This document shows, piece by piece, positions 2 through 20,297 of a DNA stretch of 21,831 nucleotides. Source of the stretch: Candidatus Phoenicimicrobium oleiphilum. Its GTDB lineage: Bacteria; Atribacterota; Phoenicimicrobiia; Phoenicimicrobiales; Phoenicimicrobiaceae. The notes beneath the pieces are model-generated. The model saw nothing but the letters and a program-made list of their open reading frames with translations. It searched no databases and was not told the DNA's origin. The position numbers and the translations under genes are program-made. Each line of letters begins with the position of its first letter. Positions within the stretch are counted from its first letter, which is position 1. The stretch lies in NCBI GenBank assembly GCA_039638295.1, contig JBDIWJ010000032.1, positions 1-21,831 of the forward strand, in the 5' to 3' direction.

Positions 2-103
2 GAACCTTCTTATTATCTCCAATTGATTAAGAAGATTCCCTTTGAGCTAACCCAAGCAAGTGATAAAAAGGTGGTAGACTTTTATTTGTCATATAACCAG
101 TAA
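2..103 (+). CDS. 3' end of an upstream gene (partial, product unknown)
   Basis: Frame 2 is open from the window edge (EPSYYLQLIKKIPFELTQASDKKVVDFYLSYNQ*) to TAA 101-103, where the heptamer repeat begins. Other genes in the window end the same way. No motif recognised. Confidence 0.45.
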   Translation, partial: EPSYYLQLIKKIPFELTQASDKKVVDFYLSYNQ

Positions 104-161
104 TAAGTAATGAGTAATGAGTAATGAGTAATGAGTTACAGGTGGTAAGTTCTGAGTTTAA
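99..161 (+). repeat. Heptamer tandem array (AGTAATG)n followed by AGTT-type heptamers
   Basis: agtaata, agtaatg x4 (106-133), agttaca, ggtggta, agttctg, agtttaa. Same block succession at 5615-5670. Confidence 0.9.
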
Positions 162-280
162 AACTGAAAATTTATATTTGATACTAACGACTAAATTGGT
201 TGGAGAATTAGCCAATCAAATCATCGGTAAGTTAATATTATACTAATATTAAAAACTAAAAAAGAGGGGGCAAATATTTG

Positions 281-955
281 ATGTTAGAGGTTTTTCAAAA
301 AGGTGGATTCTTAATGTATCCTATTTTTATATGCTCATTGATAGCGCTTACTATTTTTTTTGAAAGGATGTTCTATTTAAAAAGTATTAAAACCAAGAGT
401 AAAAGATTTGTTGTTCGAATTAAGGATTTAATAAGAAAGGGGAACATTGAATTGGCTATCTCTGCATGTCGGAAAAATCCAACTCCAGTATCTATGATTA
501 TGTTAGCTGGTTTAATGAAATATGGTAAAAGTAGAAAGGAGATAAAAGAGGCGATTGAAGATAGTGCAAGCCAAGAAATTCCTCTATTGGAAAAACACCT
601 TTCTACTCTTTCTACTATTGGAAATATTACCCCTTTATTAGGGCTTTTAGGAACAGTATTCGGTATGATCAAGGCATTTAATGTAATTGCGATTATGGGA
701 GTAGGAAAACCTGAGGTTCTTGCTGGGGGGATTTCAGAGGCATTATTAACCACTGCCTTTGGATTATCAGTAGCTATACCCACAATCGTAATTTATAATT
801 ATTTATCTAACCGAGTAGATAAATTGATAAGAGAAATGGAAATAAGTTGTGTAGATCTACTCGATCTTTTAACTAGCCATGATATGAAGGAGTCCACTAG
901 TAAAGATTTTAATCGGGAAGGTGATATAGCCTATGAAGTTTCCTCATCCCAATAA
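281..955 (+). CDS. exbB: MotA/TolQ/ExbB proton channel family protein
   Basis: TM1 MYPIFICSLIALTIFFERM; motifs PLLGLLGTVFGMIKAF and GISEALLTTAFGL. SD-like AGAGGGGG at 263-270. ATG 281 preferred over TTG 278. ExbB versus TolQ not strictly resolvable. Confidence 0.92.
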   Translation: MLEVFQKGGFLMYPIFICSLIALTIFFERMFYLKSIKTKSKRFVVRIKDLIRKGNIELAISACRKNPTPVSMIMLAGLMKYGKSRKEIKEAIEDSASQEIPLLEKHLSTLSTIGNITPLLGLLGTVFGMIKAFNVIAIMGVGKPEVLAGGISEALLTTAFGLSVAIPTIVIYNYLSNRVDKLIREMEISCVDLLDLLTSHDMKESTSKDFNREGDIAYEVSSSQ

Positions 956-1349
956 AAAAAGTGCTAGTTTTGATCTAACTCCATTAATAGATGTAGTTTT
1001 TCTATTATTGATATTTTTTATGTTGACTACTACATTTTTAAATCTGGAAAGTAGGATAAAGGTTAATTTACCCACTGGTGATTTTGCGGCTGCTGAACCA
1101 TCAAAAAATATTACTGTAACTATTGCCGAGAATAATACGATTTATTTTAACGGAAGATTGATAGATCCTTTAAAGATTACTGAAAATGTAGCCACAGAGT
1201 TGAAAAAAGATCCAGAGGGACTAGTGGTATTAGAAGCTGATCAAAATGTGCTTCACGGTAAGGTGGTTAGAGTGATGGATTTGATTAAAAAGGGAGGGGC
1301 AGACAAGATTGCCATTGCCACCAAACCGAGCACGGAAAGTAGTAAATAA
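933..1349 (+). CDS. exbD: ExbD/TolR biopolymer transport protein
   Basis: DLTPLIDVVFLLLIFFM with the conserved TM Asp; C-terminal ADQNVLHGKVVRVMDLIKKGG. Overlaps exbB by 23 nt. Confidence 0.93.
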   Translation: MKFPHPNKKSASFDLTPLIDVVFLLLIFFMLTTTFLNLESRIKVNLPTGDFAAAEPSKNITVTIAENNTIYFNGRLIDPLKITENVATELKKDPEGLVVLEADQNVLHGKVVRVMDLIKKGGADKIAIATKPSTESSK

Positions 1350-1352
1350 GTC

Positions 1353-1688
1353 CGTATCTTGTATTTCGTAAATTGTATCTTGTAAACAAGATAGGAGTCA
1401 GAAGTCAGAATTCAGTATTCAGAATAATCTTAAATATGTATAATACTATATTATTCTGACTCCTTGCTCCTGAATTCTGGATTCTTAATTAGTTTTAAGA
1501 AAAGTTTTGAGTTTTGAATTATGGTTTTTCGTTTTTCGCTTAAATCTTTTAGTTAGTTGGTAATTTAGTTTTTAAAACTAACTAAACAATTAACCAAGTA
1601 ACCCAACTAACTAATGCTAACAACTATTCACTATTCACTAGCGACTAATTTAATTGGAGAATTGGAGAATTGGTAAATAGGTAAATTT
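1353..1688. repeat. Modular intergenic repeat region (heptamer/octamer blocks with nested inverted repeats)
   Basis: YGTAWYT block 1353-1387; AGAAKTC block 1393-1427 and its inverse 1451-1485; perfect 12-bp IR TTAGTTAGTTGG 1549-1560 / CCAACTAACTAA 1603-1614; CTATTCA/CTAGCGA block 1617-1651; AATTGGAG octamers 1652-1683. Confidence 0.88.
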
Positions 1689-1720
1689 ATATATATTATT
1701 ATTAGCTGAGGTGCGAATAA

Positions 1721-3214
1721 TTGATACCCAAATATAGTTATCGAGCAAAACGTCTAAAGCAGACCAAAAAAAGTTTTTTAGGAAGGTCGTTCATAATTTC
1801 AATTGTACTTAATATCATATTATTGTATGCTTTTGGGAGTATGATTGCCTTTGATTTTAAAAAACCTTTACCTGAAGAAGAACTGACCCTGGTTAGTCTG
1901 ATAGAACTCCCTGCCCCCAAACAACCAGAAACTAAGAAACCAGAAATTGTTGAAAAAAGACCTGTTGCTCAATTAGAAGTTCAACCAAAGGTCAAACCAG
2001 TTTTACCTGAACCACCTAAATTAAAGGAAGAAATAACTGAGACTAAAGTAGTAAAGAAAGAAGAATTGACTGAAGGTATACCTAAGGTAGAAGTTAAAAC
2101 TCCTCAAATTGAATCTAAACCTCAATTAGTGGCGCCTCCTCCGCAAACTAGTGAATCTTTAGGTGAGGATATACGTATTTCTACTGAATATTTCAGGCAG
2201 GCTATAGCCAGCAGAAAAGAGGTAAAAGGGGAGATCTTAGAACCGGGAGAATCACAGATTAAGGTTGATTTAGGAGAAAAAGGAAAAGAAAATATTGAAG
2301 CTACCTATGGCACAGTGATTAATCCTGGAGAAATTACTACCCTACCTGAGACCAAGGAGAAAGAATCACCATTTGGGAGTAGACCACTTTCTATTATGGT
2401 GGAAAATTCAGAAGGAGCTCGACCTCAAACAGGTTTAGATAAAGCTAATATTGTTTATGAAATTTTAGCTGAAGGTGGAATAACTAGGTTTTTAGCTGTT
2501 TATTATGATAAGGATGCAGAAGTAGTTGGACCAGTAAGGAGTGCCCGACCTTATTTTATTAGTAAGTCTATGGAGCACCAGTCTATTTATGTCCATGCGG
2601 GAGGGAGTGAGGAGGCTTATAATTTTATAAAAGCAGAAAAAATTGATGATATAAATGAATTTGTAGATTTTCAACCTTTTTGGCGGTCTAAAGACCGAAA
2701 GCCACCCCATAATTTATATACCTCAACTATTGAATTACGCAAAGAAGCCAATAAATTAGGTTATATCGAAATGATAAAGAAAGAGGATTACCAATTTGAA
2801 ACTGATAATAATGAGAAGTTAACTGGTAAACCTACTGATTCTATAGTGATTCCTTATAATCAACATTATATAATTAGTTATAATTATCAACCAGAATCAA
2901 TGAAATATCTAAGATTTTTAAATAATGAGCCTCATATAGATGCTAAGACTAAAGAACAATTATTGGTTGATAATATTGTTATTCAATTTGTGAATACTAA
3001 AGTTATTGACGAAGAAGGACGATTGGCAATGGATTTTGTAGGTGAAGGAAGAGGTTTAATATTTTTTAAAGGTGGCTCTCAAGAGATTATATGGAAGAAA
3101 CAAGATTTAAAGACAAGAACAGTATTTTTAGATAAAGAAGGAAATAGGATAGCTTGTGCTCCAGGGAATATCTGGATCCAAATTGTCCCTTCAAATTTAG
3201 TTATAGAGTATTAA
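1721..3214 (+). CDS. Membrane-anchored DUF3048 (YerB-like) protein with TonB-like N-terminal TM and Pro/Lys/Glu-rich linker
   Basis: TTG start with GAGGTG SD. TM SFIISIVLNIILLYAF, then low-complexity P/K/E linker. From about aa 221: RPLSIMVENSEGARPQTGL..ANIVYEILAEGGITRFLAVY, GPVRSARPYF, YVHAGGS, PHNLY, PGNIWIQIVP, recognised as DUF3048 N and C domains. Confidence 0.85.
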   Translation: MIPKYSYRAKRLKQTKKSFLGRSFIISIVLNIILLYAFGSMIAFDFKKPLPEEELTLVSLIELPAPKQPETKKPEIVEKRPVAQLEVQPKVKPVLPEPPKLKEEITETKVVKKEELTEGIPKVEVKTPQIESKPQLVAPPPQTSESLGEDIRISTEYFRQAIASRKEVKGEILEPGESQIKVDLGEKGKENIEATYGTVINPGEITTLPETKEKESPFGSRPLSIMVENSEGARPQTGLDKANIVYEILAEGGITRFLAVYYDKDAEVVGPVRSARPYFISKSMEHQSIYVHAGGSEEAYNFIKAEKIDDINEFVDFQPFWRSKDRKPPHNLYTSTIELRKEANKLGYIEMIKKEDYQFETDNNEKLTGKPTDSIVIPYNQHYIISYNYQPESMKYLRFLNNEPHIDAKTKEQLLVDNIVIQFVNTKVIDEEGRLAMDFVGEGRGLIFFKGGSQEIIWKKQDLKTRTVFLDKEGNRIACAPGNIWIQIVPSNLVIEY

Positions 3215-3249
3215 ATGTAAACAAAGGTGCCTGGCACCTTTGTTTACAT
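3215..3249. repeat. Perfect 35-bp palindrome (17-bp arms, 1-nt centre); possible bidirectional terminator or REP-like element
   Basis: ATGTAAACAAAGGTGCC-T-GGCACCTTTGTTTACAT, directly after the DUF3048 gene stop. Confidence 0.85.
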
Positions 3250-3264
3250 AAATTTGTTGATAAA

Positions 3265-4167
3265 ATGAATAAAAAAAAATTAGAAGAAATTTTAGAGGAT
3301 TTTTTGGATTATCTGTATGTGGAAAGAGGGCTGGCAAAAAATACCATAATTGCTTATAGATATGATCTAATAAAATATATTCATTTCTTAAAAGAAAATA
3401 AGATACGCTCTTTTAACCTCACTAACAAAGAATTAATTAATAATTATTTTATTTATCTAAAAAGAGAAGGATTAGGAATTAATTCGATTTCCAGAAATTT
3501 AGTTGCTATAAAAATATTTTATCGTTTTATGTTAGCGGAAGGTTTTATTAAGGAAGATATTAGCAGTTTAATTGAATTTCCTCGAGTAAGTAAAAAACTT
3601 CCACAAGTTTTAAGCCTAAGAGAGATAAATATTTTGTTAGCTGATAACAATTTTCAGGGTGATTTAGGACAAAGGGATAAGGCAATTCTGGAATTACTTT
3701 ATGCTACTGGAATGAGGGTATCAGAATTGATAAACTTGAAGGTTGATGATATAAATGTAGAAAATCAGATGTTAAAGTGTTTAGGGAAAGGCTCTAAAGA
3801 GCGAATAATCCCTTTTGGTAACAAAGCCAATCAATCTTTAATTTTATATCTTAGAAAAGTTAGAGGAAAATTAGTTAAAGACCCCAGAGAGACAACTTTA
3901 TTTCTAAATAATAGAGGAAAAAAGCTTTCGCGACAGGGGATTTTTTATTTGATAAAGCAGTATGTAAGTAAAGCAGGACTGAATAAAAGAATTACTCCCC
4001 ATACCTTAAGACATACTTTAGCTACTCATCTATTAGAAAATGGGGCTGATTTAAGATCGGTTCAGGAAATGTTGGGTCATTCAGATATTTCTACTACTCA
4101 GATTTATACTCATGTAAGCAGAAAGTGGATTAAAGAGGAATATTATAGAGCTTTTCCGCGAACATAA
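3265..4167 (+). CDS. xerD: Site-specific tyrosine recombinase XerD
   Basis: YLYVERGLAKNTIIAYRYDL N-domain; catalytic motifs LYATGMRVSEL, GKGSKER, TPHTLRH, VQEMLGH, TTQIYTH. Start moved from 3154 to ATG 3265 (300 aa). Confidence 0.92.
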   Translation: MNKKKLEEILEDFLDYLYVERGLAKNTIIAYRYDLIKYIHFLKENKIRSFNLTNKELINNYFIYLKREGLGINSISRNLVAIKIFYRFMLAEGFIKEDISSLIEFPRVSKKLPQVLSLREINILLADNNFQGDLGQRDKAILELLYATGMRVSELINLKVDDINVENQMLKCLGKGSKERIIPFGNKANQSLILYLRKVRGKLVKDPRETTLFLNNRGKKLSRQGIFYLIKQYVSKAGLNKRITPHTLRHTLATHLLENGADLRSVQEMLGHSDISTTQIYTHVSRKWIKEEYYRAFPRT

Positions 4168-4212
4168 ATTAGTCGTTAGTCGTTAGTTGTCAACTATTCA
4201 CTAACGGCTGAT
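4168..4212. repeat. Minimal inverted-repeat element made only of the two terminal heptamer arms
   Basis: ATTAGTCGTTAGTCGTTAGTTG (4168-4189) / CAACTATTCACTAACGGCTGAT (4191-4212): 17 Watson-Crick pairs, 2 U-G pairs, one 3-nt internal mismatch. Confidence 0.85.
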
Positions 4213-4245
4213 TAATTAAATCCGAAAGAGGGAGGATTAGTAAAA

Positions 4246-5070
4246 ATGGTAGATTTAAAAGCAAAAATTGCAGAAAGTGTTGAATACATTGATCAAAAAA
4301 CTAAGGTTAGACCAAAAATTGCTATTATTTTAGGAACTGGATTGGGAAGATTAGCCGAAGATATTGAGGAAAAAGAAATTATCCCTTATAGTAATATACC
4401 TAATTTTCCTGTTTCTACGGTAAAGAGTCATAGTGGAAACTTGGTTTTAGGAAAATTAGGAAATAAAGAAGTAGTCGCCATGCAAGGTAGGTTTCATTAT
4501 TACGAAGGTTATAGTTTGCAAGAAGTAACTTTTCCGGTGAGGGTTATGAAAAAGTTGGGGGCAGATACAATTATTATTTCGAATGCGGCAGGGGGGATGA
4601 ACCGCTTCTTTAAAAGAGGGGATTTAATGCTTATTACTGATCATATAAACTTATTCGGTAATAATCCCTTAATTGGTCCCAATGATGAAGAATTAGGACC
4701 AAGATTTCCAGATATGTCTGAGGCATACAATCGACAGCTTATTGAATTAGCCCTGAAAGTAGCAGTAAAGGAAAAAATTAAATTGCATCAGGGGATATAT
4801 GTAGGTTTAACCGGTCCCACCTTGGAAACACCTGCAGAGTATAGATTTTTAATAAAAATTGGGGCAGATGCAGTTGGCATGTCTACGGTCCCAGAAGTCA
4901 TAGTTGCAAATCATATGGGGATGAAAGTCTTGGGGATTTCATGTATCACCGATTTAGCTATAGATGGTGTAATAGTTAAAACTAGTGTAGAAGAAATTTT
5001 AGAAGCTGCGTCTAAGGCAGAGCCCATTATGACTAAATTAGTAAAAAAGGTGATCGAGAAAATTGATTAG
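4246..5070 (+). CDS. punA: Purine-nucleoside phosphorylase (trimeric PNP/PunA family)
   Basis: IILGTGLG, MQGRFHYYEGY, SNAAGG, ITDHIN, GPRFPDMS, GPTLETPAEYR, DAVGMSTVPE; SD GGGAGG. Confidence 0.93.
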   Translation: MVDLKAKIAESVEYIDQKTKVRPKIAIILGTGLGRLAEDIEEKEIIPYSNIPNFPVSTVKSHSGNLVLGKLGNKEVVAMQGRFHYYEGYSLQEVTFPVRVMKKLGADTIIISNAAGGMNRFFKRGDLMLITDHINLFGNNPLIGPNDEELGPRFPDMSEAYNRQLIELALKVAVKEKIKLHQGIYVGLTGPTLETPAEYRFLIKIGADAVGMSTVPEVIVANHMGMKVLGISCITDLAIDGVIVKTSVEEILEAASKAEPIMTKLVKKVIEKID

Positions 5071-5518: not shown

Positions 5519-5522
5519 GATA

Positions 5523-5799
5523 GTATCGGGTATCGCGTATTGAGTATCGCGTGAAAAAATAGAAGTCAGTAGTCAGAGTCCAGTATTCAGAATGTTGAAT
5601 AGCGGATAGGATATAGTAATAAGTGATGAGTAATGTGTAATAGGTTGATAGTTGCAAGTTACGAGTTTAAATAAAGGAAGCAATTGCGTATTACCTGCCG
5701 TATTGACCGGTAGACTTGAGGACTGAGTGACTGGTAGACAGGTAAACCGGGTAAATGGCTAACTAAATACTAAATACTAACTAATGACTATATACTATA
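5523..5799. repeat. Modular intergenic repeat region with seven successive short-repeat blocks
   Basis: GTATCGC 5523-5550; AGAAGTC 5561-5593; ATAGCGG 5599-5614; AGTAATG 5615-5642; AGTTRCR 5643-5670; octamers ACYGGTAG-like 5706-5761; ACTAAAT/ACTAATG arm 5762-5799. Confidence 0.88.
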
Positions 5800-5816
5800 G
5801 AAGAAGAGGATAAAAG

Positions 5817-6848
5817 ATGAGAACTATAGAATGGAAAGAAGGGAAGGTTTTTTTAATTGACCAACGAAAACTTCCCTTAAAATTTGAAGTAATTAATTGT
5901 TCTAATTATCAAGAAATAGCTAAGGCGATCAGAAAAATGAAGATTAGAGGTGCCCCAGCTATTGGAGTAGCTGCTGCCTATGGTATGGCTTTGGCAGCTA
6001 ATTCTTCAAAAGCAAAAAGTTATGAAAAATTTATTAAGGATATGGAAAAAGCAAGAGATTATTTAGCTTGTTCTCGTCCTACTGCAGTCAATTTATTTTG
6101 GGCTATGGATAGGATAATGAAATTAGTAAAAACTAAAAGAGATATAAGTCTTTTAAGATTAAAACACTTAGTTTTACAGGAAGCAAGAAACATCGAGCAG
6201 GAAGATGTTGAAATAAATAAGACCATCGGAAGATATGGCTCTACGCTTATAAAAGACGGAGATAATATTTTAACTCATTGTAATGCTGGAGCTTTAGCTA
6301 CTGCAGATTATGGCACAGCCTTGGGAATAATTCGAACTGCTTTTGCAGAGGGGAAGAAAATACACGTCTATGTCGATGAAACCAGGCCTGTTTTACAAGG
6401 AGCTAGACTTACAGCTTGGGAATTGATGCAGGAGAGAATACCTTTTACATTAATTACAGATAATATGGCTGGTTTTTTAATGTTAAAAAATAAAGTGAAT
6501 TTGGTTATAGTAGGAGCGGACCGCATTGCCCTTAATGGTGATGTGGTCAATAAGATTGGCACTTATTCTTTGTCAGTATTAGCCAAAGAAAATTCTGTCC
6601 CCTTTTTTGTAGCTGCTCCTTTATCAACTATAGATACCTCTTTAGAATCAGGGGAAGAAATTCCTATTGAAGAAAGAGATCCTCAGGAGGTTACTAAAAT
6701 TTTGGGAAAACAGATAGCCCCTATGGGGGTAAAGGTTTTTAATCCTGCTTTTGACCTTACTCCTAATCGTTATGTAGAGGCTATTATTACTGAAAAGGGG
6801 ATTATTAAGAAACCCTTTAAGGAAAATGTCAAATTAGTCGTTAGTTAG
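5817..6848 (+). CDS. mtnA: S-methyl-5-thioribose-1-phosphate isomerase
   Basis: IDQRKLP, IRGAPAIG, SRPTAVNL, LTHCNAGALAT, DETRPVLQG, GADRI, NKIGT, FNPAFD. Confidence 0.96.
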   Translation: MRTIEWKEGKVFLIDQRKLPLKFEVINCSNYQEIAKAIRKMKIRGAPAIGVAAAYGMALAANSSKAKSYEKFIKDMEKARDYLACSRPTAVNLFWAMDRIMKLVKTKRDISLLRLKHLVLQEARNIEQEDVEINKTIGRYGSTLIKDGDNILTHCNAGALATADYGTALGIIRTAFAEGKKIHVYVDETRPVLQGARLTAWELMQERIPFTLITDNMAGFLMLKNKVNLVIVGADRIALNGDVVNKIGTYSLSVLAKENSVPFFVAAPLSTIDTSLESGEEIPIEERDPQEVTKILGKQIAPMGVKVFNPAFDLTPNRYVEAIITEKGIIKKPFKENVKLVVS

Positions 6849-6992
6849 TCTTAGTGAATAGTGAATAGTAAAGAAAAAAGAAAAGAAGTTAGAATATTAG
6901 ATAGCGTAGAGCGTATAGGCGCAGGTGTATAGTGCAAGCAAAGAAAGTTACAATATTATCGAATAGAAGTCAGGATCTTAAACGACTAAATA
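6835..6992. repeat. Intergenic repeat element (left arm overlaps mtnA stop; short right arm before murA RBS)
   Basis: TAGTCGTTAGTTAGTCTTAGTGAATAGTGAATAGT 6835-6869; ATAGCGTAGAGCGTATA 6901-6918; AACGACTAAAT at about 6981-6991. Confidence 0.8.
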
Positions 6993-7005
6993 AAGGAGGA
7001 GAAAA

Positions 7006-8271
7006 TTGGATTCAGAGAAATTTATTATTACTGGAGGAAAAAGGTTAGAGGGCAGTATTGAAATAGCTGGTGCAAAAAATTCTGCCTTATCTATTATGGC
7101 TGCTACTTTATTAACTAAAGAAGTATGCATTTTGAGAAATGTTCCTCGTCTTACTGATGTTGATACTATGGCTGAGGTAATAAGGACACTGGGCGTTAAG
7201 GTGGAGTGGAAGGGAGATAATAACACGCTTTATATTGATTCTGATAATTTCAATAATTATGAAGCACCTTATGATCTGGTAAAGAAGATGAGGGCTTCTT
7301 TTTTAGTTATGGGGCCACTTTTGGCTCGTTTAAAGAAAGCGAAAATATCTTTACCGGGTGGCTGTTCTATCGGTGCTCGTCCAGTTGATTTTCATATAAA
7401 AGGTTTCGAAGCTTTGGGTGCTAAGGTTGAGGTGGAAAAAGGTTATATCGAAGCAGAGGTTAATAAATTGAAGGGTGATGATATATATTTGGATTTCCCT
7501 AGTCTGGGTGCAACCGAGAATATAATGATGGCTGCCTCCCTGGCTGAAGGGATTACCAAAATAGAAAATGCTGCTAAGGACCCTGAAGTAGTAGAATTGG
7601 GAAATTGTTTAATAAAGATGGGAGCGAAAATAGAGGGTTTAGGAACCGACTTGATTACTATAGAAGGGGTAAAAAAATTAAATGGAGTTGATTACGATAT
7701 AATTTCTGACCGAATAGAAGCAGGTACCTATATGATAGCAGCAGCTATAACAAGAGGAGATGTCTTAATAAAAAAAATTGACCCTTTATTACTAAAGCCC
7801 GTAATAGTAAAATTAGAAGAAGCTGGAGTAAAAATCAAATTAAATAAGAATTCAATCAGGGTAATAGGACCAAATAGGGTTAATGCTGTGGATATTAAAA
7901 CTTTACCCTTTCCTGGATTTCCCACGGATATGCAGCCTCAGTTTATGGCTTTGGCTTGTGTAGCAAGGGGAACCAGTGTTATTACTGAGACTGTATTTGA
8001 GAATAGGTTTGCTCACACCGGTGATATGATAAGAATGGGAGCAGATATTAAAGTTGAAGGGCACAGTGCTATTGTTAAAGGTGTAAAAAAATTGAGTGCT
8101 GCTCCAGTAATGGCCTCGGATTTAAGAGGAGGAGCGGCACTGGTGTTAGCTGGTTTAGTAGCAGAAGGAACTACTGAATTGAGCAGAATCTATCATTTAG
8201 ATAGAGGATATATAGATTTAGAAGGTAAGCTAACTTCTTTAGGAGCGAATATTTGCCGAGTTAAAGAATAA
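7006..8271 (+). CDS. murA: UDP-N-acetylglucosamine 1-carboxyvinyltransferase
   Basis: GAKNSAL, KMRAS, LPGGCSIGARPVDFH (catalytic Cys), DRIEAGT, PGFPTDMQ, FENRF, SDLRGG, LDRGY. TTG start with AAGGAGG SD. Confidence 0.97.
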   Translation: MDSEKFIITGGKRLEGSIEIAGAKNSALSIMAATLLTKEVCILRNVPRLTDVDTMAEVIRTLGVKVEWKGDNNTLYIDSDNFNNYEAPYDLVKKMRASFLVMGPLLARLKKAKISLPGGCSIGARPVDFHIKGFEALGAKVEVEKGYIEAEVNKLKGDDIYLDFPSLGATENIMMAASLAEGITKIENAAKDPEVVELGNCLIKMGAKIEGLGTDLITIEGVKKLNGVDYDIISDRIEAGTYMIAAAITRGDVLIKKIDPLLLKPVIVKLEEAGVKIKLNKNSIRVIGPNRVNAVDIKTLPFPGFPTDMQPQFMALACVARGTSVITETVFENRFAHTGDMIRMGADIKVEGHSAIVKGVKKLSAAPVMASDLRGGAALVLAGLVAEGTTELSRIYHLDRGYIDLEGKLTSLGANICRVKE

Positions 8272-8273
8272 TA

Positions 8274-8408
8274 TAGTCGTTAGTATTTAGTGAATAATAT
8301 TTAGTTTATATTAAATAAAAGCAAAAAATTGTGTAACTGTAAATTAAATAACTAATAAGTTTTAAAAAGGATTTTAACTAACGTCTAACGACTATTCAAT
8401 AATAACTA
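8274..8408. repeat. Intergenic repeat element with inverted heptamer arms
   Basis: Left TAGTCGTTAGTATTTAGTGAATAATATTTAGT 8274-8305; right ACTAACGTCTAACGACTATTCAATAATAACTA 8377-8408, followed by GGGAGG SD. Confidence 0.82.
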
Positions 8409-8430
8409 AAAAAGGGAGGAGAAAAATAAT

Positions 8431-9447: not shown

Positions 9448-9449
9448 AG

Positions 9450-9680
9450 AGTCGATAGTGAATAGCTGTTAGTTAGTATTTAGTTAACCAGTTTACCAGT
9501 TACCCGGTTGGCCAGTTAATATAGTATATAGTCGTTAGTATTACTATCTTATAGCGTATAGGCGAGGGTAATAAGTGCAAGAAAAATACAAATTTCTTTG
9601 CGAGATACGAGACAGGAATTTAGTTTTGAGCTTTCATTTTTCGTTATATACTAAAATACCAAGCAACTAACTAAATTAAT
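9450..9680. repeat. Modular intergenic repeat region
   Basis: AGTCGATAGTGAATAGCTGTTAG arm from 9450; octamers TTAACCAG/TTTACCAG/TTACCCGG 9484-9518; second TAGTCGTTAG at about 9529; ATAGCGTATAGGCG 9551-9564; reverse-complement GTATCT block GCGAGATACGAGAC 9600-9613. Confidence 0.8.
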
Positions 9681-9722
9681 ATATTTATGATTGTGACCCA
9701 AAAAAGTAGACACAGTAGTAAG

Positions 9723-9799
9723 GTAGGGGCATGATGCATCGTGCCCACAGGAGAAATTAGGTAATAATATTAAGAGGGCACAATTCATTGTGCCCCTAC
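9723..9799. repeat. Inverted doublet of GTAG-type REP palindromes
   Basis: GTAGGGGCATGATGCATCGTGCCCAC (+, 9723-9748) and GTAGGGGCACAATGAATTGTGCCC (-, 9776-9799): GTAG tetranucleotide followed by a GC-clamped hairpin. Confidence 0.85.
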
Positions 9800-9920
9800 A
9801 ACTTATAATTATGACTAGAATTATAATTTACTATGAAATTATCTGCATGGTATCCTATATATAATCTGTTGAAAATATTTTGGCTTTTTAGGAAATAACC
9901 ATTTATTAAAGAAGGTAAAA

Positions 9921-11654: not shown

Positions 11655-11769
11655 TTTAGTCGCTAGCGAATAATAGTGAAGAGCCGTTAATGTATCTTGC
11701 GTCTGCGCTGCGCTATACTTGTACTATAACAATATCTATATATTAACGACTATTCACTAATGACTAAAT
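11654..11769. repeat. Intergenic repeat element with inverted heptamer arms
   Basis: Left ATTTAGTCGCTAGCGAATAATAGTGAAGAGCCGTTAAT 11654-11691; right ATTAACGACTATTCACTAATGACTAAAT 11742-11769 (inner 18 nt match 16/18 as inverted repeats). Confidence 0.85.
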
Positions 11770-11789
11770 AATAAATTGGATGGAAGAAT

Positions 11790-12485: not shown

Positions 12486-12558
12486 TAAGAAGGATTAGGT
12501 TGAGATAAAAATAAAAGAGATTTAAAAGAAAAAAATTCCCTTTAATTGGATTAAAAAT

Positions 12559-13416
12559 ATGAATGCAATTGTAATAAACAGTTATTCTAAAATAAATTTA
12601 ATCTTAAATATATTAAACAGGCGTGAGGATGGATATCATGAAATTGAGACTATAATGCAATCAGTTAATCTGGCCGATAAGATAACAATTACTGAAAAAG
12701 AAGATAGGATTGAAATAGAATGCAATAATCCTCAAGTTCCAGTTAATAATAAAAGTTTAGCATATCGGTCAGCAGAGAAGATCCTCAAGAAGTATAAAAT
12801 AGAAAGAGGAGTTAAAATAAAAATTGATAAAAATATCCCTATTGCTGGTGGAATGGCAGGAGGTTCAGCGAATTCTGCTGCGATTTTGACAGGAATAAAT
12901 AAAATATTTAATTTAAATCTCAGCAACGAAGATTTGCGGGAAATGGGGGAAGAATTAGGAATGGATGTTCCTTTTTGCTTACGAAATGGAACAGCTTTAG
13001 CTCTTCATAGAGGGGAAAAGATATTGCATCTTCCTCCTATTACTCCTCCTTTATGGATTATTGTAATAAATCCTGGTTTTGAGATATCTACTCAATGGGC
13101 TTACAATAATATCAATTTAAGGAAGACTAAAAATGGAAGAAATAATATGGAGGCTATGTTAGTCGCTTTAAAAAGGGGAATCCCCGGAGAGATCGCGAAA
13201 AATTTATTTAACTCTTTCGAAGAGTTAATTATAAAAAAATATCCTGAGGTTGGAAGGATTAAGGATAGATTACTAAATGCAGGGGCATTAGGTGCTCTTA
13301 TGTCTGGTAGTGGACCTACGGTGTTTGGAATTATGCAGAATAAAGAAGAAGCTTTAAAGGTTTATGAAAGATTAAAACAAGAATATAAATTAATCTGGTT
13401 AGTTCACACTTTCTAG
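12559..13416 (+). CDS. ispE: 4-diphosphocytidyl-2-C-methyl-D-erythritol kinase
   Basis: SKINLIL, RREDGYHEIET, KNIPIAGGMAGGSANSAA (GHMP motif), GMDVPF, MSGSGPTVF. Confidence 0.95.
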   Translation: MNAIVINSYSKINLILNILNRREDGYHEIETIMQSVNLADKITITEKEDRIEIECNNPQVPVNNKSLAYRSAEKILKKYKIERGVKIKIDKNIPIAGGMAGGSANSAAILTGINKIFNLNLSNEDLREMGEELGMDVPFCLRNGTALALHRGEKILHLPPITPPLWIIVINPGFEISTQWAYNNINLRKTKNGRNNMEAMLVALKRGIPGEIAKNLFNSFEELIIKKYPEVGRIKDRLLNAGALGALMSGSGPTVFGIMQNKEEALKVYERLKQEYKLIWLVHTF

Positions 13417-13520
13417 TCGTTAGTGAATAGTGAATAGTCGTTAACATTTCGTATCTTGTATCTTGTGAATCATATTTCGTAAACAAGATAGGGGTCAGAA
13501 GCCAGAATTCAGTATTCAGA
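13414..13520 (+). repeat. Dispersed ~102-bp composite repeat arm (TAGTCGT/TAGTGAA + YGTATCT + AGAAKTC blocks)
   Basis: 13414-13515 aligns without gaps to the reverse complement of 18271-18372 (90/102 identical by hand count); partial third copy at 1353-1423. Confidence 0.92.
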
Positions 13521-13530
13521 GGGGATAGTT

Positions 13531-14010: not shown

Positions 14011-14013
14011 AGT

Positions 14014-14088
14014 CGTATCTCGTGCAAAGAATATGAAAATTATGAGTAGGAATTCAGAAGCTGGAATATTAGATAGCGGATAGCGTAT
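14014..14088 (+). repeat. Degenerate copy of the modular repeat blocks
   Basis: CGTATCTCGTG 14014-14024; GGAATTC AGAAGCT GGAATAT 14049-14069; ATAGCGG ATAGCGT 14073-14086. GAATATTAGATAGCG shared with 6892-6906. Confidence 0.7.
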
Positions 14089-14283
14089 AACATTTAAGGC
14101 ATAGGATATTAGTTATTTGGTTTACTGTTTATTTTAATTTGCTAGTTAAATGGTTTGATATTAATTTATTAAACATCTAAATTATATACACAATACGATA
14201 TATAAAAAGAGTTTTAAGCTTTTAATTCTTGATATAAGTAACATTACCCATTTATTTACTGTAGAAGGAGGAGATTAATAATC

Positions 14284-14679: not shown

Positions 14680-14713
14680 TATAAAAGAAAGTAGGGAAGA
14701 AGGTGTAAGTATA

Positions 14714-15649
14714 ATGGAAAAATTTTATCGCAAAACTGTTCTAAATCTGTTAATTTTTTTGATAATGTTAATTTTGGGTTGTGAAATAATCTATGCTCAG
14801 GACGCCCAAACTTATTATAAGAATGGATATATATATTTTACTCAGGGAAACTACGAGAAGGCAGAACAGAACTATAAAAATGCTGTTGAATTAGATCCTA
14901 ATTTTGAAGATGCTCATTACTGGTTAGGGAAAGTATATAAACAAACCGGAGATTATAGTCGCGCAGTAGAACAATGGAAAAAGGTTTTAAAAATTAATCC
15001 CAAAAATCCTTATGCTTTTAGCTACTTAATAGGCAGTTTTCAAAGCACTTCTCGAGTTAAATCAGATAAAGCAAGTGATTACTTAAACGAAGGAATTAAA
15101 ATAATTGGAAATCCAGAGGAATATCTTATAAAGCAAGATGCGCCATCTGTAGATCTTTTGCTTAGTGCTACTCCTTATTTTAAGAAAGCAATAAGTTTAG
15201 AGCCAAATTTATTAGAAGCTTATTTTTGGCTGGGAGAAATTTATTGGGTTTTAGGAGATAAGAGTACCTCTCAGTTTCGTTCATTAGCTATAGAAAATTA
15301 TGAAAAAGCTATTGACATAGAAGAAGCTACCAATTCCGTGTCTTTCAACCATCCCTCAGCATACTGGCGTTCCTATATACAATTAAGTAAAATATATAAT
15401 TCTTTAAAATGGGTGGACAAAGAAGAACAATTATGGCTAAGATTAGAAAAGGCAAGAGCACTCCCTTATCAACAAGCTTTGGATAGAAAAGGATATTTTG
15501 GTTTTGGATATCCTTCTCGAATAGATGTTAGGTTTACAGAAGGGGATAAGATAGAGAATTGGATTTATACAGAAAAAAATATTACTTTTGTGGTAATTAA
15601 TGGAGAAGTACAGGGTGAGAAAGAGAAAGAGGAGGAACAGCAATTTTAA
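14714..15649 (+). CDS. Exported tetratricopeptide repeat protein
   Basis: Signal-like N-terminus ending IYA-Q; TPR units such as [49 protein letters not shown]. Confidence 0.85.
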
Positions 15650-16251
15650 AAGAAAAAGAAAATATCAAACATTTAGGAATAATGGGTGGAGTATTTGACC
15701 CCATACATTATGGACATTTATTTACCGCTGAAGAAGCAAGGATTGAATTTAAGTTAGATAAAGTAATATTTGTTCCATGTCGGGAACCGGTTCATAAAAG
15801 AGAAAATAGTATTTCTGATCCAGAACACCGATATTTAATGACTGTACTGGCTATCAGCAATAATCCTTTTTTTGAAGTATCTAAAATTGAACTTAATCGA
15901 CCAGGTCCTTCTTACTCTATCGATACAGTAAAAGAATTTTTTAAAAAATATAATCATGGAATAGAAATATTTTTTATAACTGGTGCTGATGCTTTCTTGG
16001 AGATAGATTCCTGGTATAAGAGTGAAGAATTAATTAAACTTTGTCAATTTGTTGCTGCTACTCGCCCTGGATATGATTTAAACAGGTTAGACCAAAGATT
16101 TAAAAAAATAATTAAAATTATGGAGATTCCCCCCTTGTCTATATCTTCTACAGATATTAGAAGAAGGGTAAGAGAGGGCAAAAGTATTAAATACCTAGTT
16201 CCTTATAAAGTGGAAGAATACATCTACAAAAATAGATTATATCAAAGATAA
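15643..16251 (+). CDS. nadD: Nicotinate-nucleotide adenylyltransferase (start probably ATT 15643; first ATG is 15682)
   Basis: [17 protein letters not shown] (HxGH), [32 protein letters not shown]. Confidence 0.93.
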
Positions 16252-16275
16252 TATTTTGTTTTTTTGGAGATGAGA

Positions 16276-16851
16276 ATGGATATTGAATTGATAAAGATAA
16301 GATTAAGGGAAATGATGAGCAAAGAGAGATTTGACCATTCGATTAATGCTTCTCAAGTAGCTCGAAAGTTAGCTTTAAAGTATAATTATCATGATGTAAA
16401 TAAAGCAGAAGTAGCCGGGCTATTGCATGATTGTGCTAAAGATTTAGATTATAGCACCTTAGAGAAGATGATAGTAAAATATAATATAAAAACTGATGAA
16501 ATTATTCGGAAAATTCCTAAATTATTACATCCTTTAGTAGGTGCAGCAATGGCGGAAAAAGAATTTAATATTCAAGATCCAGCTATTTTAAAGGCAATAA
16601 GATCACACAGTACTGGAACATCCCAGATGTCCCTGTTAGATAAGATAATTTATCTAAGCGATAAAATTGAACCTTTGAGAAATAATGATGGAGTTGAAGA
16701 AACAAGGAAAATAGCAGAGTTTAGTTTAGATAAAGCGGTATTAAAGGTTTTGGATAGTGGATTATTATATTTAATTAGTAAAGGTTCTCTAATCCACCCT
16801 GTTACAATTGAAGCCCGCAATGATATCTTAAGCAAGGTGGTTTTTGCTTGA
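16276..16851 (+). CDS. yqeK: HD-domain bis(5'-nucleosyl)-tetraphosphatase YqeK
   Basis: RFDHS, AGLLHDCAK, LLHPLVGA, AIRSHSTG, IIYLSDKIEPLR; directly after nadD. GGAG favours ATG 16276 (alternatives 16264, 16270). Confidence 0.9.
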   Translation: MDIELIKIRLREMMSKERFDHSINASQVARKLALKYNYHDVNKAEVAGLLHDCAKDLDYSTLEKMIVKYNIKTDEIIRKIPKLLHPLVGAAMAEKEFNIQDPAILKAIRSHSTGTSQMSLLDKIIYLSDKIEPLRNNDGVEETRKIAEFSLDKAVLKVLDSGLLYLISKGSLIHPVTIEARNDILSKVVFA

Positions 16852-18035
16852 TGTATGAAAATAATTTAGAAAAGAAGATAAAAAGAAATAGTAGAAAATA
16901 TCTAAGAAAGAAAAAAGATAAAAAATTTTTCTTAATTGTATTTTCTATTTTTCTATTAGCCATTTTAATTATTTTCTTTAAATATTTAGGAATATTTCCG
17001 TTTAGTTCAGATATATTATCCTTTAATCGAATAAATATACTAATTGTGGGTTGCGATGAAGTTGAAAATCATGGACGTGCCGATACCATAGTGCTTTTAA
17101 GTATCTCCCCTAAGGCTAAGGATGCTCTTATTTTATCTATACCTCGAGATACCCGAGTGGAAATCCCCGGGAGAGGAATGGATAAAATAAACCATGCCTA
17201 TGCCTTTGGGGGAATAGATTTAATAAGTAAAACAGTCAGATCATTTTTAGATATCCCTCTCCATTTTTATGTTGTAGCTGATTTTGAAGGCTTTGTTAGC
17301 ATAATTGATGCCTTAGGTGGAGTAGAAGTTGATGTAGAAAAAGAAATGTATTATGTGGATAAAGCAGGAGGGGTAAAAATTGACCTTCATCCTGGGAAGC
17401 AAATATTGGATGGTGAAAAAGCATTAGAATACATTAGATTCAGGCAGGATAAATTAGGTGATCTAGGCAGGATAAAAAGGCAGCAAAAATTAGCCATTGC
17501 TCTGGTTAATAAGATAATGAAATATAATTCTGTACTAAAAATTCCCCAACTATTAGAAGAAGTAAAAGATTGTATTAATACTAATATAGAATTGCAAGAT
17601 GCGGTCACTTTAGCCAATTTGTTTAGTGGTGTAAGCCAGGAAAAGTTTAAATTTGAAACTATTCAGGGTACCCCAATTTACATTGAGGGAATCAGTTATT
17701 TAGAACCAAATGTGGAAGAAGTACGACAAAGAATTAACTCACTGCTTTACAGTCAAAATAGTGGCATAAAAGTAGAGGTTTTAAATGGAAGTGGTCTATC
17801 AGGTATTGCTCATAGAGTGGCTAAAGAATTAGAATTGCAGGGGTTTGAAATTGTGAATATTGGTAATGCAGATAATTTTAATTATGAAAAAACTAAAATT
17901 GTAGTTTGCTCAAAAAAGATAAATTTAGATAATGAATTTAAACGATTATTTAAAGATTTTGAAATGGTTAAAGATTATCAAGCCGATGCTGACTTAGATT
18001 TAGTTATAATATTAGGGAAGGATATGACAGAATAG
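16851..18035 (+). CDS. LytR-CpsA-Psr (LCP) family protein with C-terminal LytR_C domain
   Basis: TM anchor; GRADTI, SIPRDTRV, KINHAY, IDALGGV, YIRFR..GDLGRIKRQQ; C-terminal VEVLNGSG..GIA..GNAD..VIILGKD. TGATG overlap with yqeK (TTG 16848 alternative). Confidence 0.92.
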   Translation: MYENNLEKKIKRNSRKYLRKKKDKKFFLIVFSIFLLAILIIFFKYLGIFPFSSDILSFNRINILIVGCDEVENHGRADTIVLLSISPKAKDALILSIPRDTRVEIPGRGMDKINHAYAFGGIDLISKTVRSFLDIPLHFYVVADFEGFVSIIDALGGVEVDVEKEMYYVDKAGGVKIDLHPGKQILDGEKALEYIRFRQDKLGDLGRIKRQQKLAIALVNKIMKYNSVLKIPQLLEEVKDCINTNIELQDAVTLANLFSGVSQEKFKFETIQGTPIYIEGISYLEPNVEEVRQRINSLLYSQNSGIKVEVLNGSGLSGIAHRVAKELELQGFEIVNIGNADNFNYEKTKIVVCSKKINLDNEFKRLFKDFEMVKDYQADADLDLVIILGKDMTE

Positions 18036-18055
18036 TCGTTAGTGAATAGATGTTA

Positions 18056-18079
18056 GTAGGACAGGCGTCTTGCCTGTCC
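18056..18079 (+). repeat. GTAG-type REP palindrome (second sequence class)
   Basis: GTA-GGACAGGC-GTCTT-GCCTGTCC, 8-bp perfect stem. Confidence 0.75.
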
Positions 18080-18234
18080 ATACTTATGCCCGCAAAAGCA
18101 GATAGGTTAAAAACCATAATTTAAAACTCAAAATTTTTCTTAAAACTAATTAAGAATCCAGAATTCAGGAGCTAGGAGTCAGAATATAGTATTATATATA
18201 TGATTACTACCCAAAAAGCAAACAATATGGGAAT

Positions 18235-18260
18235 GTAGGGGCACGATGCATCGTGCCCAC
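18235..18260 (+). repeat. GTAG-type REP palindrome
   Basis: GTAG-GGGCACGATGCATCGTGCCC-AC (perfect 20-bp palindrome); one mismatch to 9723-9748. Confidence 0.88.
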
Positions 18261-18392
18261 GGGAAACATTATACTGAATTCTGGCTTTTGACTTCTATCT
18301 TGTTTACGAGATATGATTTACAATATACAAAATACAAAACGCTAACGACTATTCACTATCGACTAACGACTAATAAAGAAGGAGGTGTGTTT

Positions 18393-18770
18393 TTGAAAAA
18401 AAATTCTTTAAACATTGCTAAAATAGCTGCAGCTGCCGCAGTAGAGAAAAAAGCAAAAGACACGGTAATATTGAATCTAAGCAAATTAACTTTAATTGCT
18501 GACTATTTTGTAATCACTACTGGTGATTCAGAACCTCAATTAAAAGCAATAAATAATTTTATAATGAAAAAATTGAAAGAGAGTGAAATTAGATTATTAC
18601 ATTGTGAGGGCAGACCGGAGACAGGATGGATTTTATTGGATTATGGGGATGTAGTAGTTCATATATTTTCTAAAGAAAAAAGAGAGTTTTACGATTTAGA
18701 ATATATATGGCAGGAGGCAAATAGGATTCGACTTTTAAAGAGAAAAGTCAAAGAGGAGGAGGAGCAATGA
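18393..18770 (+). CDS. rsfS: Ribosome silencing factor RsfS (Iojap)
   Basis: EKKAKD, IADYFVITTG, WILLDYGDVVVHIF, REFYDLEYIW. TTG 18393 follows AAGGAGGTG; ORF-track extension to 18246 is repeat DNA. Confidence 0.95.
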   Translation: MKKNSLNIAKIAAAAAVEKKAKDTVILNLSKLTLIADYFVITTGDSEPQLKAINNFIMKKLKESEIRLLHCEGRPETGWILLDYGDVVVHIFSKEKREFYDLEYIWQEANRIRLLKRKVKEEEEQ

Positions 18771-19147
18771 GTGCTCGTGAAGAGGGAAAAGGGAGTTGGA
18801 TTTTTGGATTAATAATATTAGTAATTGGTATAATATTTATAGTAGAAAATTTTACAGATTTGGAAATATGGGGAAGAGTATGGAACCTATGGCCACTAAT
18901 TTTAGTTATCGGGGGAATTAAAGAAATATGGCAAAATAAATCAATTTTTTTTGGGATAATACTAATTGCCATAGGAGGTATATTTTTGGGTAAATATTTT
19001 TTTGATTTTGTGATATCAGAAAATATCTGGAGATTTTGGCCCATACTGATAATTGCTTTGGGAATTGATCAAATTTTTAAATCCTTTGGAATAGGTAAAA
19101 TTAGAGCCAAGGGAAAAGCAAAAGAAGAAGAAGAAGAAGAGATATAG
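18767..19147 (+). CDS. Small membrane protein, DUF5668/LiaF-TM-like (two internal repeats)
   Basis: Two G-I/L-ILI..G ... W..WP..LI..G units; ATGA overlap with rsfS; GGAGG SD. Confidence 0.72.
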   Translation: MSAREEGKGSWIFGLIILVIGIIFIVENFTDLEIWGRVWNLWPLILVIGGIKEIWQNKSIFFGIILIAIGGIFLGKYFFDFVISENIWRFWPILIIALGIDQIFKSFGIGKIRAKGKAKEEEEEEI

Positions 19148-19152
19148 TTCCT

Positions 19153-20220
19153 TTATTTTTTATTTCTTTTATTTTTAAACTTTTTAATTTCCAATAAAAG
19201 GACGATTGCTCCGATGAACAAATTAAAATAAAAGACTATAAATCTCCAAGCCCCAACAAAAAGTCCCAAAAGATGATAAGGGACAAAGAGCGAAAATAAA
19301 GTTGCAAAGCCTAATTCTGCTGTACCACTTCCACCCGGGGTAGGCATAAAAGGTAAAATAAAATAAAATATAATTTGTGTTATTAACACTTGGGAGAAAT
19401 TAAATTTTAAGTTAAATCCCCAGAGAAGTAAGGGGGCTATTAAGAAAAAGGTGCCCCAGAAGATAATGGTATATAGGGTAGCTAATAATAATTTAACCCA
19501 ATTTTCTTTTATTAGATAAAAACTTTTATGAAATTTTCTAATTTCGAAAATTATTTTCTCAGTTAAACTCGATACTTTTTCTTTTTTGAAAAAGTTAGAA
19601 AGACAGGGAAATTGTTTAATTCTAAAGATTATTTTTATCATCCTTTCTGGGTGTCTTACCACTAAAATGAATAGGTAAATAAGTAAAAGAGAGAATAAGG
19701 TAACCAGGATAACAAGAATTGCAGAAAAAGTAACATAACTGGTAATTGTTTTGCTAAAGAAGAAGAAAACGATAGGAGTAGTGATTGAAAAGACCAGTGT
19801 TTTAAGTAAAGGAATAACAGTGGCTATCATTGTCGCCTTGCCCAGGGGTATTTTATATTTAAGATTTTTATTAAATAAATACATTTGAGCGGGCAAAGTC
19901 CCGGAGAAAAAAGGAGTTATGCTACCGGCAAAGTTACTGATATAGTGTACTTTTAAAGCTTCTACAAAGGTAATTTTTTCATTAACTGCCTCTACGATCG
20001 TTTTTATTCTGAGGGCGGCTATTATAGCAGAAAATACTATTAAAGTAAAAGATAAAAAAAGGTATTTTTTATTAACATAAGATAAACTTGTCAAGACATT
20101 CTGGTTATTAGTAACAAAAGTAATAACCAAAAAGGCAATTACTCCAATAACTAAGGAAATTATTAATCCTTTGAAAATTCTTTTTTTATCTAAAATTAAT
20201 TCGTTCAAACAATCGTTCAC
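19153..20220 (-). CDS. Lysylphosphatidylglycerol synthase TM / flippase-like membrane protein (UPF0104)
   Basis: Multi-TM; SITPFFSGTLPAQ, MPTPGGSGTAELGF, WRFIVFY. Start is GTG 20220 or, with better SD spacing, TTG 20208. Confidence 0.85.
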   Translation of the reverse strand: MNDCLNELILDKKRIFKGLIISLVIGVIAFLVITFVTNNQNVLTSLSYVNKKYLFLSFTLIVFSAIIAALRIKTIVEAVNEKITFVEALKVHYISNFAGSITPFFSGTLPAQMYLFNKNLKYKIPLGKATMIATVIPLLKTLVFSITTPIVFFFFSKTITSYVTFSAILVILVTLFSLLLIYLFILVVRHPERMIKIIFRIKQFPCLSNFFKKEKVSSLTEKIIFEIRKFHKSFYLIKENWVKLLLATLYTIIFWGTFFLIAPLLLWGFNLKFNFSQVLITQIIFYFILPFMPTPGGSGTAELGFATLFSLFVPYHLLGLFVGAWRFIVFYFNLFIGAIVLLLEIKKFKNKRNKK

Positions 20221-20230
20221 CCCTTCAAAC

Positions 20231-20297
20231 TAGTCGTTAGTGAATAGTCGTTAGTATTTAGTATATAATATATAGTAAAGAAAAGGAAGATAGAATA
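20231..20297. repeat. Heptamer arm directly upstream of the minus-strand gene
   Basis: TAGTCGTTAGTGAATAGTCGTTAGTATTTAGTATA; on the minus strand this reads as the ACTAACG/CTATTCA right arm preceding the SD GAAGGGG. Continuation TAGTAAAGAAAA..GAAG.TAGAATA resembles 6867-6897. Confidence 0.85.

Follow-up and report, generated by a model that had tools for sequence, protein, structure and literature searches.

The stretch analysed here (the window) comprises the 21,831 nt of contig C32 (JBDIWJ010000032.1) of Candidatus Phoenicimicrobium oleiphilum, whose genome (G000) measures 1.65 Mb, has 33% GC, and is 91% complete. Proteins of its relatives have their nearest named matches in Atribacterota. 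It carries a housekeeping run: exbB/exbD-like genes, a DUF3048 gene, xerD, a purine nucleoside phosphorylase gene (pnp), mtnA, murA, mreB, an S55 peptidase gene, ispD/E/F, nadD, yqeK, an LCP gene, and rsfS. Gene names without a family match were assigned by reading the translations, and an Rfam scan of the window gave no match. The spacers between these genes hold tandem arrays of degenerate seven- or eight-base repeats, with a left arm near the upstream stop codon and a right arm in the inverse sense near the next start. Our subject is these arms and a cassette with a four-helix-bundle gene (PF05635), which the same arms enclose elsewhere in the genome.

The repeat words are labelled A to J. 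Word A comprises three heptamers named in an earlier note on this DNA (e.g., window 8274-8287 and 13421-13427), and words B to J were obtained by clustering the flanks of intact four-helix-bundle genes. Most of the library comes from the family to which the window belongs, and sister-family arrays built of other words may therefore go undetected. Gene calls are our own predictions, a few of which are wrong, and this adds noise to the spacer counts. Forty-one genomes were searched for gene families, and 75 intact frames were recovered from relatives' loci. Comparisons with G001, a genome of the same genus, cover about 0.43 of 1.0 Mb.

Every one of the 16 arm coordinates in the earlier note marks an arm, with an offset of 0-11 nt. 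Left arms in the window start at 4170, 6835, 8274, 9450/9456 (degenerate), 11657, 13414, and 18033; right arms lie at 187, 1627-1647, 4197, 5766-5797, 6982, 8388, 11746, 18345-18372, and 20231. At 13414 and 18033, the arm opens with a gene's stop codon, that of ispE and that of the LCP gene, respectively. The arm at 6835 sits within the last codons of mtnA (stop 6846-6848), and these arm-encoded codons vary with the word among relatives. The note had described about 12 spacers as built from the same blocks. Its coordinates cover 11 spacers, and only five of them have two word-A arms; two have only the left word-A arm and four only the right, three of these four having a left arm of another word. 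The note had overlooked the arm remnants at 14012-14090 and the fact that three window spacers are nearly identical.

A genome-wide scan of position and orientation agreed with the layout that had been described. In G000, the sense-to-antisense count of the heptamer at 8274-8280 is 46:1 after stop codons and 1:45 before starts. Its density is 5.88 per 10 kb in spacers and 0.49 elsewhere (12-fold). The left arm precedes the right one in all 33 spacers with two arms of the word-A heptamer, and adjacent repeats in spacers have a period of 7 in 587 cases, compared with 118 for period 6 and 160 for period 8. The arm signal is far above chance.

The arms enclose a gene at other loci. In a 281-nt spacer between polA and coaE (contig C35), word-A arms surround a PF05635 gene with an internal deletion, of which the start and C-terminal third remain; relatives carry an intact four-helix-bundle gene at this junction. 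G000 has two intact PF05635 genes (contigs C3 and C43), each within inverted arms of another word, and no gene in G000 is enclosed by word-A arms alone. The family occurs in 32 of the 41 genomes searched, with up to 11 matches each. The earlier proposal of a four-helix-bundle gene as cargo is supported in G000 and in relatives, where the same arms enclose PF05635 genes. GxxExxY genes, also proposed as cargo, are absent from G000 and present in 5 of the 41 genomes.

The intact unit consists of a left arm, an A/G-rich leader, a gene of about 120 codons, and a right arm, and it sits at junctions inside transcribed gene runs. Periodic runs flank both sides of 50 of the 68 intact genes for which both flanks are present. 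An inverted stem with a median of 31 bp was found in 39 of these 68 cassettes (direct orientation, 5; cross-element pairs, 32/300), and in a wider set, in 89 of 145 cassettes compared with 10 for direct orientation. The cassette protein belongs to PF05635/TIGR02436 (23S-rRNA intervening-sequence protein) and matches Xcc0516/2GSC in sequence. Its predicted structure (pLDDT 96) matches the fold of 2GSC (TM 0.91), 2RLD, and Avd 4DWL (TM 0.80) in Foldseek; a match to NF033474 is weak and below cut-off. The gene is under purifying selection, with a ratio of nonsynonymous to synonymous substitution rates (dN/dS) of 0.13 over 90 close, non-independent pairs (80-98.5% nucleotide identity, 105 core columns). 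A looser earlier computation (76 stems vs controls of 50 and 48; dN/dS 0.59 over 429 pairs, including distant, poorly aligned ones) was replaced by ungapped stems and by these 90 pairs. The gene has the orientation of 66 of 66 and, in the wider count, 110 of 111 identifiable neighbours; this co-orientation is the real polarity of the system. Word-A cassettes were also seen between the genes for tRNA-Met and tRNA-Glu at five loci (L342, L270, L350, L275, and L276, the first and third from Planctomycetota), which are five of ten loci chosen by eye.

The repeat word tracks the protein clade, not the host, across phyla. Arm distance is correlated with protein distance (Mantel rho 0.46, n = 70, permutation maximum 0.18), and its median is 0.98 within one genome vs 0.49 for close proteins in different genomes. 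On the protein tree, the word labels require 35 changes, compared with 62 when shuffled. Word B occurs at up to eight different upstream genes and word D at four. Word A accompanies a clade-A protein at 10 of 10 loci with at least 75% identity, at 8 of 16 with 65-75%, at 6 of 45 with 58-65%, and at 4 of 78 below; these loci include Planctomycetota and Omnitrophota with 43-47% GC. About ten words, every one linked to a clade of the protein, coexist in a single genome. These results bear on the possibility that the host makes simple repeats in place, by slippage or template switching, and that the gene is a passenger. Unit number does vary freely among relatives, and Xanthomonas has heptamer arrays with this polarity for which the available text describes no gene (PMC4692102). 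However, about ten clade-bound words per genome, a word that crosses phyla with its protein, and long composites with unique linkers that recur at unrelated junctions largely refute this explanation, which we consider the least probable of all.

Gene-less copies recur at several junctions. Spacers 1350, 13414, and 18033 represent one composite of about 350 nt with left arms A, D, and G, a short AT-rich loop, and right arms G, J, and A. G001 has a full 378-nt composite between ispE and ispF and a reversed copy between the LCP gene and rsfS. In G000, it is reversed at the LCP-rsfS junction, cut to a third at ispE-ispF, and also present between exbD and the DUF3048 gene, where G001 differs. Among co-directional spacers of G000, arm-type segments of at least 80 nt are common to 69 pairs in the same and 32 in the opposite orientation (the pairs being non-independent); the largest segment families split 15:7, 9:5, and 9:4. 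The description as a family of non-autonomous nested elements is supported by this composite at three junctions and by the arm mosaics.

The idea of exchangeable sites also finds support in relatives, where spacers vary widely, near-empty alleles occur, and words are swapped at one site. Twenty of the 75 intact genes of relatives lie at 11 junctions whose flanking genes adjoin in G000, which has gene-less arm mosaics there (judged by eye; the base rate for arm-bearing junctions is 238/810). For four upstream genes, the word varies from genome to genome, the orthology of one being weak. At the window junctions, spacers range from -4 to 504 nt across the family's genomes, and arrays are present in 17 of 21 genomes at mtnA-murA, 16 of 20 at murA-mreB, 10 of 17 before mtnA, 9 of 16 at xerD-pnp, and 6 of 10 at LCP-rsfS. 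The same junction holds different words in different genomes, and one to three short, arm-free alleles exist at four of these five junctions. None of these words was found at the five junctions in the sister family (0/6, 0/6, 0/11, 0/10, and 0/10). Between G000 and G001, 250 junctions were compared; arms are present at 60 in G000 and at 24 in G001, and arm-bearing spacers differ by a median of 113 nt, other spacers by 46 nt. We consider the spacers of the window very probably to be relics of the four-helix-bundle cassette.

The term polarity-conserving, which had been applied to the spacers, is not supported for them. Among spacers of at least 40 nt in G000, arms of words A-F and H are present in 238 of the 810 co-directional, 9 of the 43 convergent, and 24 of the 59 divergent ones. 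In each class, most left arms are in the left half of the spacer and most right arms in the other half, and asymmetric interiors were found both ways round. The left-then-right order says nothing about direction because a two-armed inverted-repeat element reads the same on either strand. Arm junctions have an excess of amber stops (35/89 vs 168/770 at other junctions, p 0.0005). In the convergent spacer at C58:7262-7431 of G000, we observed a left arm of a different word behind each stop and a retained terminator-like hairpin between them, which suggests insertion directly behind the stops, not one element filling the gap.

The earlier note had further proposed that the transcript of each spacer folds back and joins the stop codon to the next ribosome-binding site, which would preserve translational coupling. 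Folding against dinucleotide shuffles gave end-to-end pairing in a part of the spacers. An end-to-end duplex, reaching from the stop region to just before the Shine-Dalgarno sequence, is predicted at 4165, 11652, and 18033 (0/300 shuffles each) and at 8269 (4/300), and not in the other 7 of the 11. The spacers at 96, 1347, 5516, 6830, 9445, and 20221 are no better than shuffles (33 to 171 of 300); at 13414, the signal comes from a hairpin inside the spacer. End-to-end inversion was also found in 22 of 675 co-directional spacers, compared with 2 for direct and 2 for cross controls. As a general function, the fold-back is not supported: pairing is limited to 4 of 11 spacers, mismatches have no G-U bias, outer arms match in 21 of 70 two-armed spacers, and arms are as common in divergent and convergent as in co-directional spacers. 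Moreover, the same cassette sits between tRNA genes, without stop or ribosome-binding site. We regard this reading as highly improbable.

The mismatches bear on any role of the arms at the RNA level: were transcript pairing under selection, G-U mismatches would be expected to exceed A-C ones. Ratios of G-U to A-C mismatches in the arms are 39:41, 25:26, and 93:89, and other mismatch types are commoner than either. A looser stem computation gave the same parity (161:141 and 95:92). In controls, the ratio was 5:0 for 13 terminator-like hairpins and 8:1 for 42 tRNA acceptor stems, although these numbers are small. This spectrum fits an arm that is an array of unit variants, not a maintained helix. 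The outer arms are the same word in the 21 of 70 spacers against 13.4 by chance, and 63 of 5000 shuffles are as high; still, they are a minority. Arms of one direction only are present in 164 of the 238 arm-bearing co-directional spacers. These counts matter for a second RNA-level explanation, an mRNA intervening sequence, in which the arms are kept for pairing in the transcript, RNase III cuts the stem, the cassette tunes RNA processing or stability of the operon, and the protein binds RNA. In Coxiella, the intervening sequence carries this gene, its termini form a 28-bp stem, heptamer repeats lie at the 5' end, and RNase III cuts it in vitro, according to the available text of PMC4990558. 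The inverted stems of the cassettes, the consistent co-orientation of the gene, the copies between tRNA genes, and the match of the fold to the RNA-binding Avd agree with it. It is opposed by the lack of a G-U excess, though unit slippage could mask one, by the 49 of 70 two-armed spacers with unmatched outer arms, and by the frequency of one-direction arms. It also leaves the spread of copies unexplained. RNA runs containing this stretch exist in the form of contigs, which do not reveal RNA ends. This explanation appears unlikely to us.

A third explanation is retro-mobility, in which an Avd-like pentamer takes the looped-out RNA to a reverse transcriptase in trans and the cDNA integrates at transcript junctions. 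The Avd-like fold and the weak NF033474 match point to it, and Avd partners a reverse transcriptase and binds RNA, as stated in the part of bioRxiv 10.1101/2023.10.23.563531 that was available. Co-orientation and the hugging of stops are compatible with an RNA intermediate. However, PF00078 (reverse transcriptase) has no match in G000 and is present in only 13 of the 41 genomes searched, vs 32 with the four-helix-bundle gene, and composites occur in both orientations. We consider retro-mobility improbable. For G000, the absence of PF00078 matches argues against a reverse transcriptase as the mobiliser. A RAYT (REP-associated tyrosine transposase, REP being repetitive extragenic palindrome) appears unlikely as well, since the single Y1 transposase of G000 is flanked by different, unrelated palindromes.

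On balance, we favour a reading at the DNA level: the spacers would be what is left of a mobile cassette, nested and without its gene, together with non-autonomous copies of it, and the cassette protein would probably read the arms. The pentameric protein would recognise arrays of its own word at both ends, as a transposase reads sub-terminal repeats. Copies would move as DNA, via host recombination, repair, or conversion between arms, without target duplication. Later arrivals would land inside earlier ones, and genes would then be lost; an example of nesting is locus L155, where the gene is flanked by the word of its own clade and, further out, by another word. The arms would abut stop codons and Shine-Dalgarno sequences mostly because this is the only tolerated place in an operon junction of 10-25 nt, and an arm can itself supply an amber stop.

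Several points weigh against the DNA-level reading or parts of it. Orthologous copies among same-clade pairs inflate the Mantel test. No intact four-helix-bundle gene was found at any window junction when orthologous loci and the neighbours of relatives' cassettes were searched; therefore, the link of the window spacers to the cassette rests on shared words and on other junctions. As the comparison is unrooted, the short alleles could be deletions and not pre-insertion sites. Among 33 word-A elements, no target-site duplication of 2-5 nt was detected outside the arrays (2 nt: 9 vs 6.3 expected; 3 nt: 1 vs 3.2); a 2-base duplication inside the terminal unit would be indistinguishable from the unit itself. 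No mobilising enzyme was identified for the cassette in a search that left DDE transposase families aside. An RNA intermediate would also account for the strictly co-oriented gene and for the 2:1 orientation bias among gene-less segments. Finally, the hugging of stops argues against purely passive placing, and left arms adjoin stop codons even in convergent spacers, which may mean targeting besides selection.

The individual spacers of the window are collected in Table 1.

Table 1 Arm-bearing spacers of the window, with the number of dinucleotide shuffles (of 300) as low as the native spacer and the alleles found in relatives
Feature	Position	Strand	Structure	Shuffles	Alleles in relatives
Mosaic spacer before exbB-like gene	99..193	+	Left arm E 99-136 (5.4 heptamers), right arm A 184-193; arms unmatched	171	
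Composite copy, exbD-DUF3048 gene	1350..1650	+	Left arm D, complete inner G pair (1396-1424/1443-1480), then right arms J/H and A (1613-1647); outer left arm A absent		G001: no composite
Minimal two-armed word-A element, xerD-pnp	4168..4212	+	Arms pair end to end	0	17 nt, arm-free: G004, G012, G015
Mosaic spacer before mtnA	5520..5797	+	Left arms C/B, G, E in a stack, followed by right arms H, A/C	47	-4 and 11 nt: G005, G014
Word-A element, mtnA-murA	6835..6989	+	Last mtnA codons and the stop encoded by the left arm; word-F left arm further in; right arm short	33 (not significant)	
Word-A element, murA-mreB	8274..8397	+		4	21 nt, arm-free: G005; different words in other relatives
Mosaic after mreB	9450..9680	+	Left arms A, H, C, F; decayed right arms; then a REP-type palindrome pair (about 9725-9800)	97	
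Word-A element before ispD	11657..11768	+		0	Overlapping genes (-4): G005
Left third of composite, ispE-ispF	13414..13520	+	Arms A, D, G; 102 nt 88% complementary to 18271-18372		
Left-arm remnants after ispF	14012..14090	+	Words D, G, F		
Full composite, reversed, LCP gene-rsfS	18033..18372	-	Word-A arms at both ends; REP-type palindrome at the centre (about 18235-18260), absent from the G001 copy	0 (z -6.2)	19-20 nt: G012, G014
Solo word-A arm	20231..20277	-	Divergent spacer; directly upstream of the Shine-Dalgarno sequence of the lysylphosphatidylglycerol-synthase-TM gene		

The 17-nt xerD-pnp allele and its flanks are identical in the three relatives, which belong to two genera; this may mean recent regional transfer or mis-binning. 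Word I (loci L016, L152, and L156; window 1652-1686) is an octamer with a sense opposite to that of the other words, the purine-rich strand lying before starts (13:0) and the pyrimidine-rich strand after stops. The spacer between the DUF3048 gene and xerD contains a perfect palindrome at 3215-3249, copies of which flank the only Y1 (RAYT-like) transposase gene of G000 (C23:17607-18491). The palindrome is thus probably a REP belonging to that enzyme rather than a terminator. The second REP-type family (9725-9800 and 18235-18260) has a 20-nt core with 58 exact matches genome-wide, both palindrome strands counted. It is among the most enriched intergenic words and inserts within heptamer elements, and no cognate transposase was found for it in G000. 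In the region 933-3214, the protein encoded after the ExbB/ExbD-like genes combines a proline-rich, TonB-like N-terminus with DUF3048 domains.

Bacterial miniature inverted-repeat transposable elements (MITEs) such as Correia, RUP, and ERIC are short, non-coding, multi-copy sequences bounded by inverted repeats, and they occur nested and near gene ends in either orientation. The gene-less elements described here are likewise short, non-coding, multi-copy, bounded by inverted repeats, and found in either orientation. Unlike MITEs, their ends are degenerate periodic arrays and not a fixed terminal repeat, no target duplication was detected, and the coding parent is a four-helix-bundle gene and no known transposase.

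Intergenic tandem arrays of seven-base units are familiar as the short tandemly repeated repetitive sequences of cyanobacteria. In Xanthomonas, the genus of the pentamer structure, the available text of PMC4692102 gives a positional rule for heptamers (sense up to 50 bp after stops, antisense up to 50 bp before starts) and 70 facing pairs of arrays in Xcc; it also covers Nostoc arrays. Start-proximal heptamers are described for Beggiatoaceae in the text available from PMC4679880. These systems resemble ours in the seven-base tandem intergenic arrays and in their placing at stops and starts, but the words differ, and the loci of Rehm et al. are conserved, as far as the available text goes, in contrast to the fast turnover of spacers here. 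The available portions of PMC4692102 and PMC4679880 make no mention of a link to four-helix-bundle proteins or intervening sequences.

The closest relatives of the cassette are 23S rRNA intervening sequences with an open reading frame (S23p/PF05635; Coxiella burnetii, Leptospira). Judging from the available text of PMC4990558, they share the protein family, a terminal stem of about 30 bp, heptamers upstream of the gene, and patchy horizontal spread. Unlike them, the cassette here lies between protein or tRNA genes and not inside an rRNA gene, has many sites per genome, uses clade-specific words, and has hundreds of gene-less nested derivatives. Its gene is under purifying selection, whereas that of Coxiella is described there as decaying. 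A PF05635 frame is present in intact cassettes elsewhere in G000 and in relatives, and the window copies carry none. Avd of diversity-generating retroelements (4DWL, 8UB7) has the same fold; its family forms pentameric barrels, and Avd binds RNA (available parts of bioRxiv 10.1101/2023.10.23.563531 and PMC10053308, the latter of which notes the likeness of PF05635 to Avd). Unlike in those retroelements, identity to Avd is 12%, and no linked reverse transcriptase was found in G000. The system is a variant of the intervening-sequence kind with an open reading frame, located at mRNA and tRNA junctions and behaving like nested MITEs; it is not a member of the rRNA intervening-sequence or diversity-generating retroelement families. 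In the open literature, which leaves out subscription journals and supplements, we found no paper that joins heptamers, cassette, and protein. New here are the test of words against clades, the composite in two orientations, and the wobble test.

The finding connects three separate matters: the heptamer arrays of many bacteria, which lack an explanation; a protein family hitherto met only in rRNA inserts and as crystal structures; and the question of where Avd comes from. Because the lineage offers some ten clades of the protein, every one with a word of its own, exchanging protein and word gives a direct test of specificity, and the cassettes between tRNA-Met and tRNA-Glu are a good site for testing processing, tRNA ends being cut precisely. 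More tentatively, the system may represent a class of elements without a transposase, recombinase, or reverse transcriptase of their own, in which a ring-shaped four-helix-bundle protein reads a clade-specific code of 7 or 8 bases and drives the copying of itself and of gene-less passengers into junctions. If so, rRNA intervening sequences would be one landing site, Avd a domesticated relative, and the bacterial heptamer excess a fossil record, which G000, with arms in about 3 of 10 spacers, would show at saturation. The organism also illustrates how repeats with a fast turnover can fill the operon junctions of a compact genome and alter the stop and last codons of its housekeeping genes. If the protein is a programmable repeat reader or mobiliser, the element would be of a new kind.

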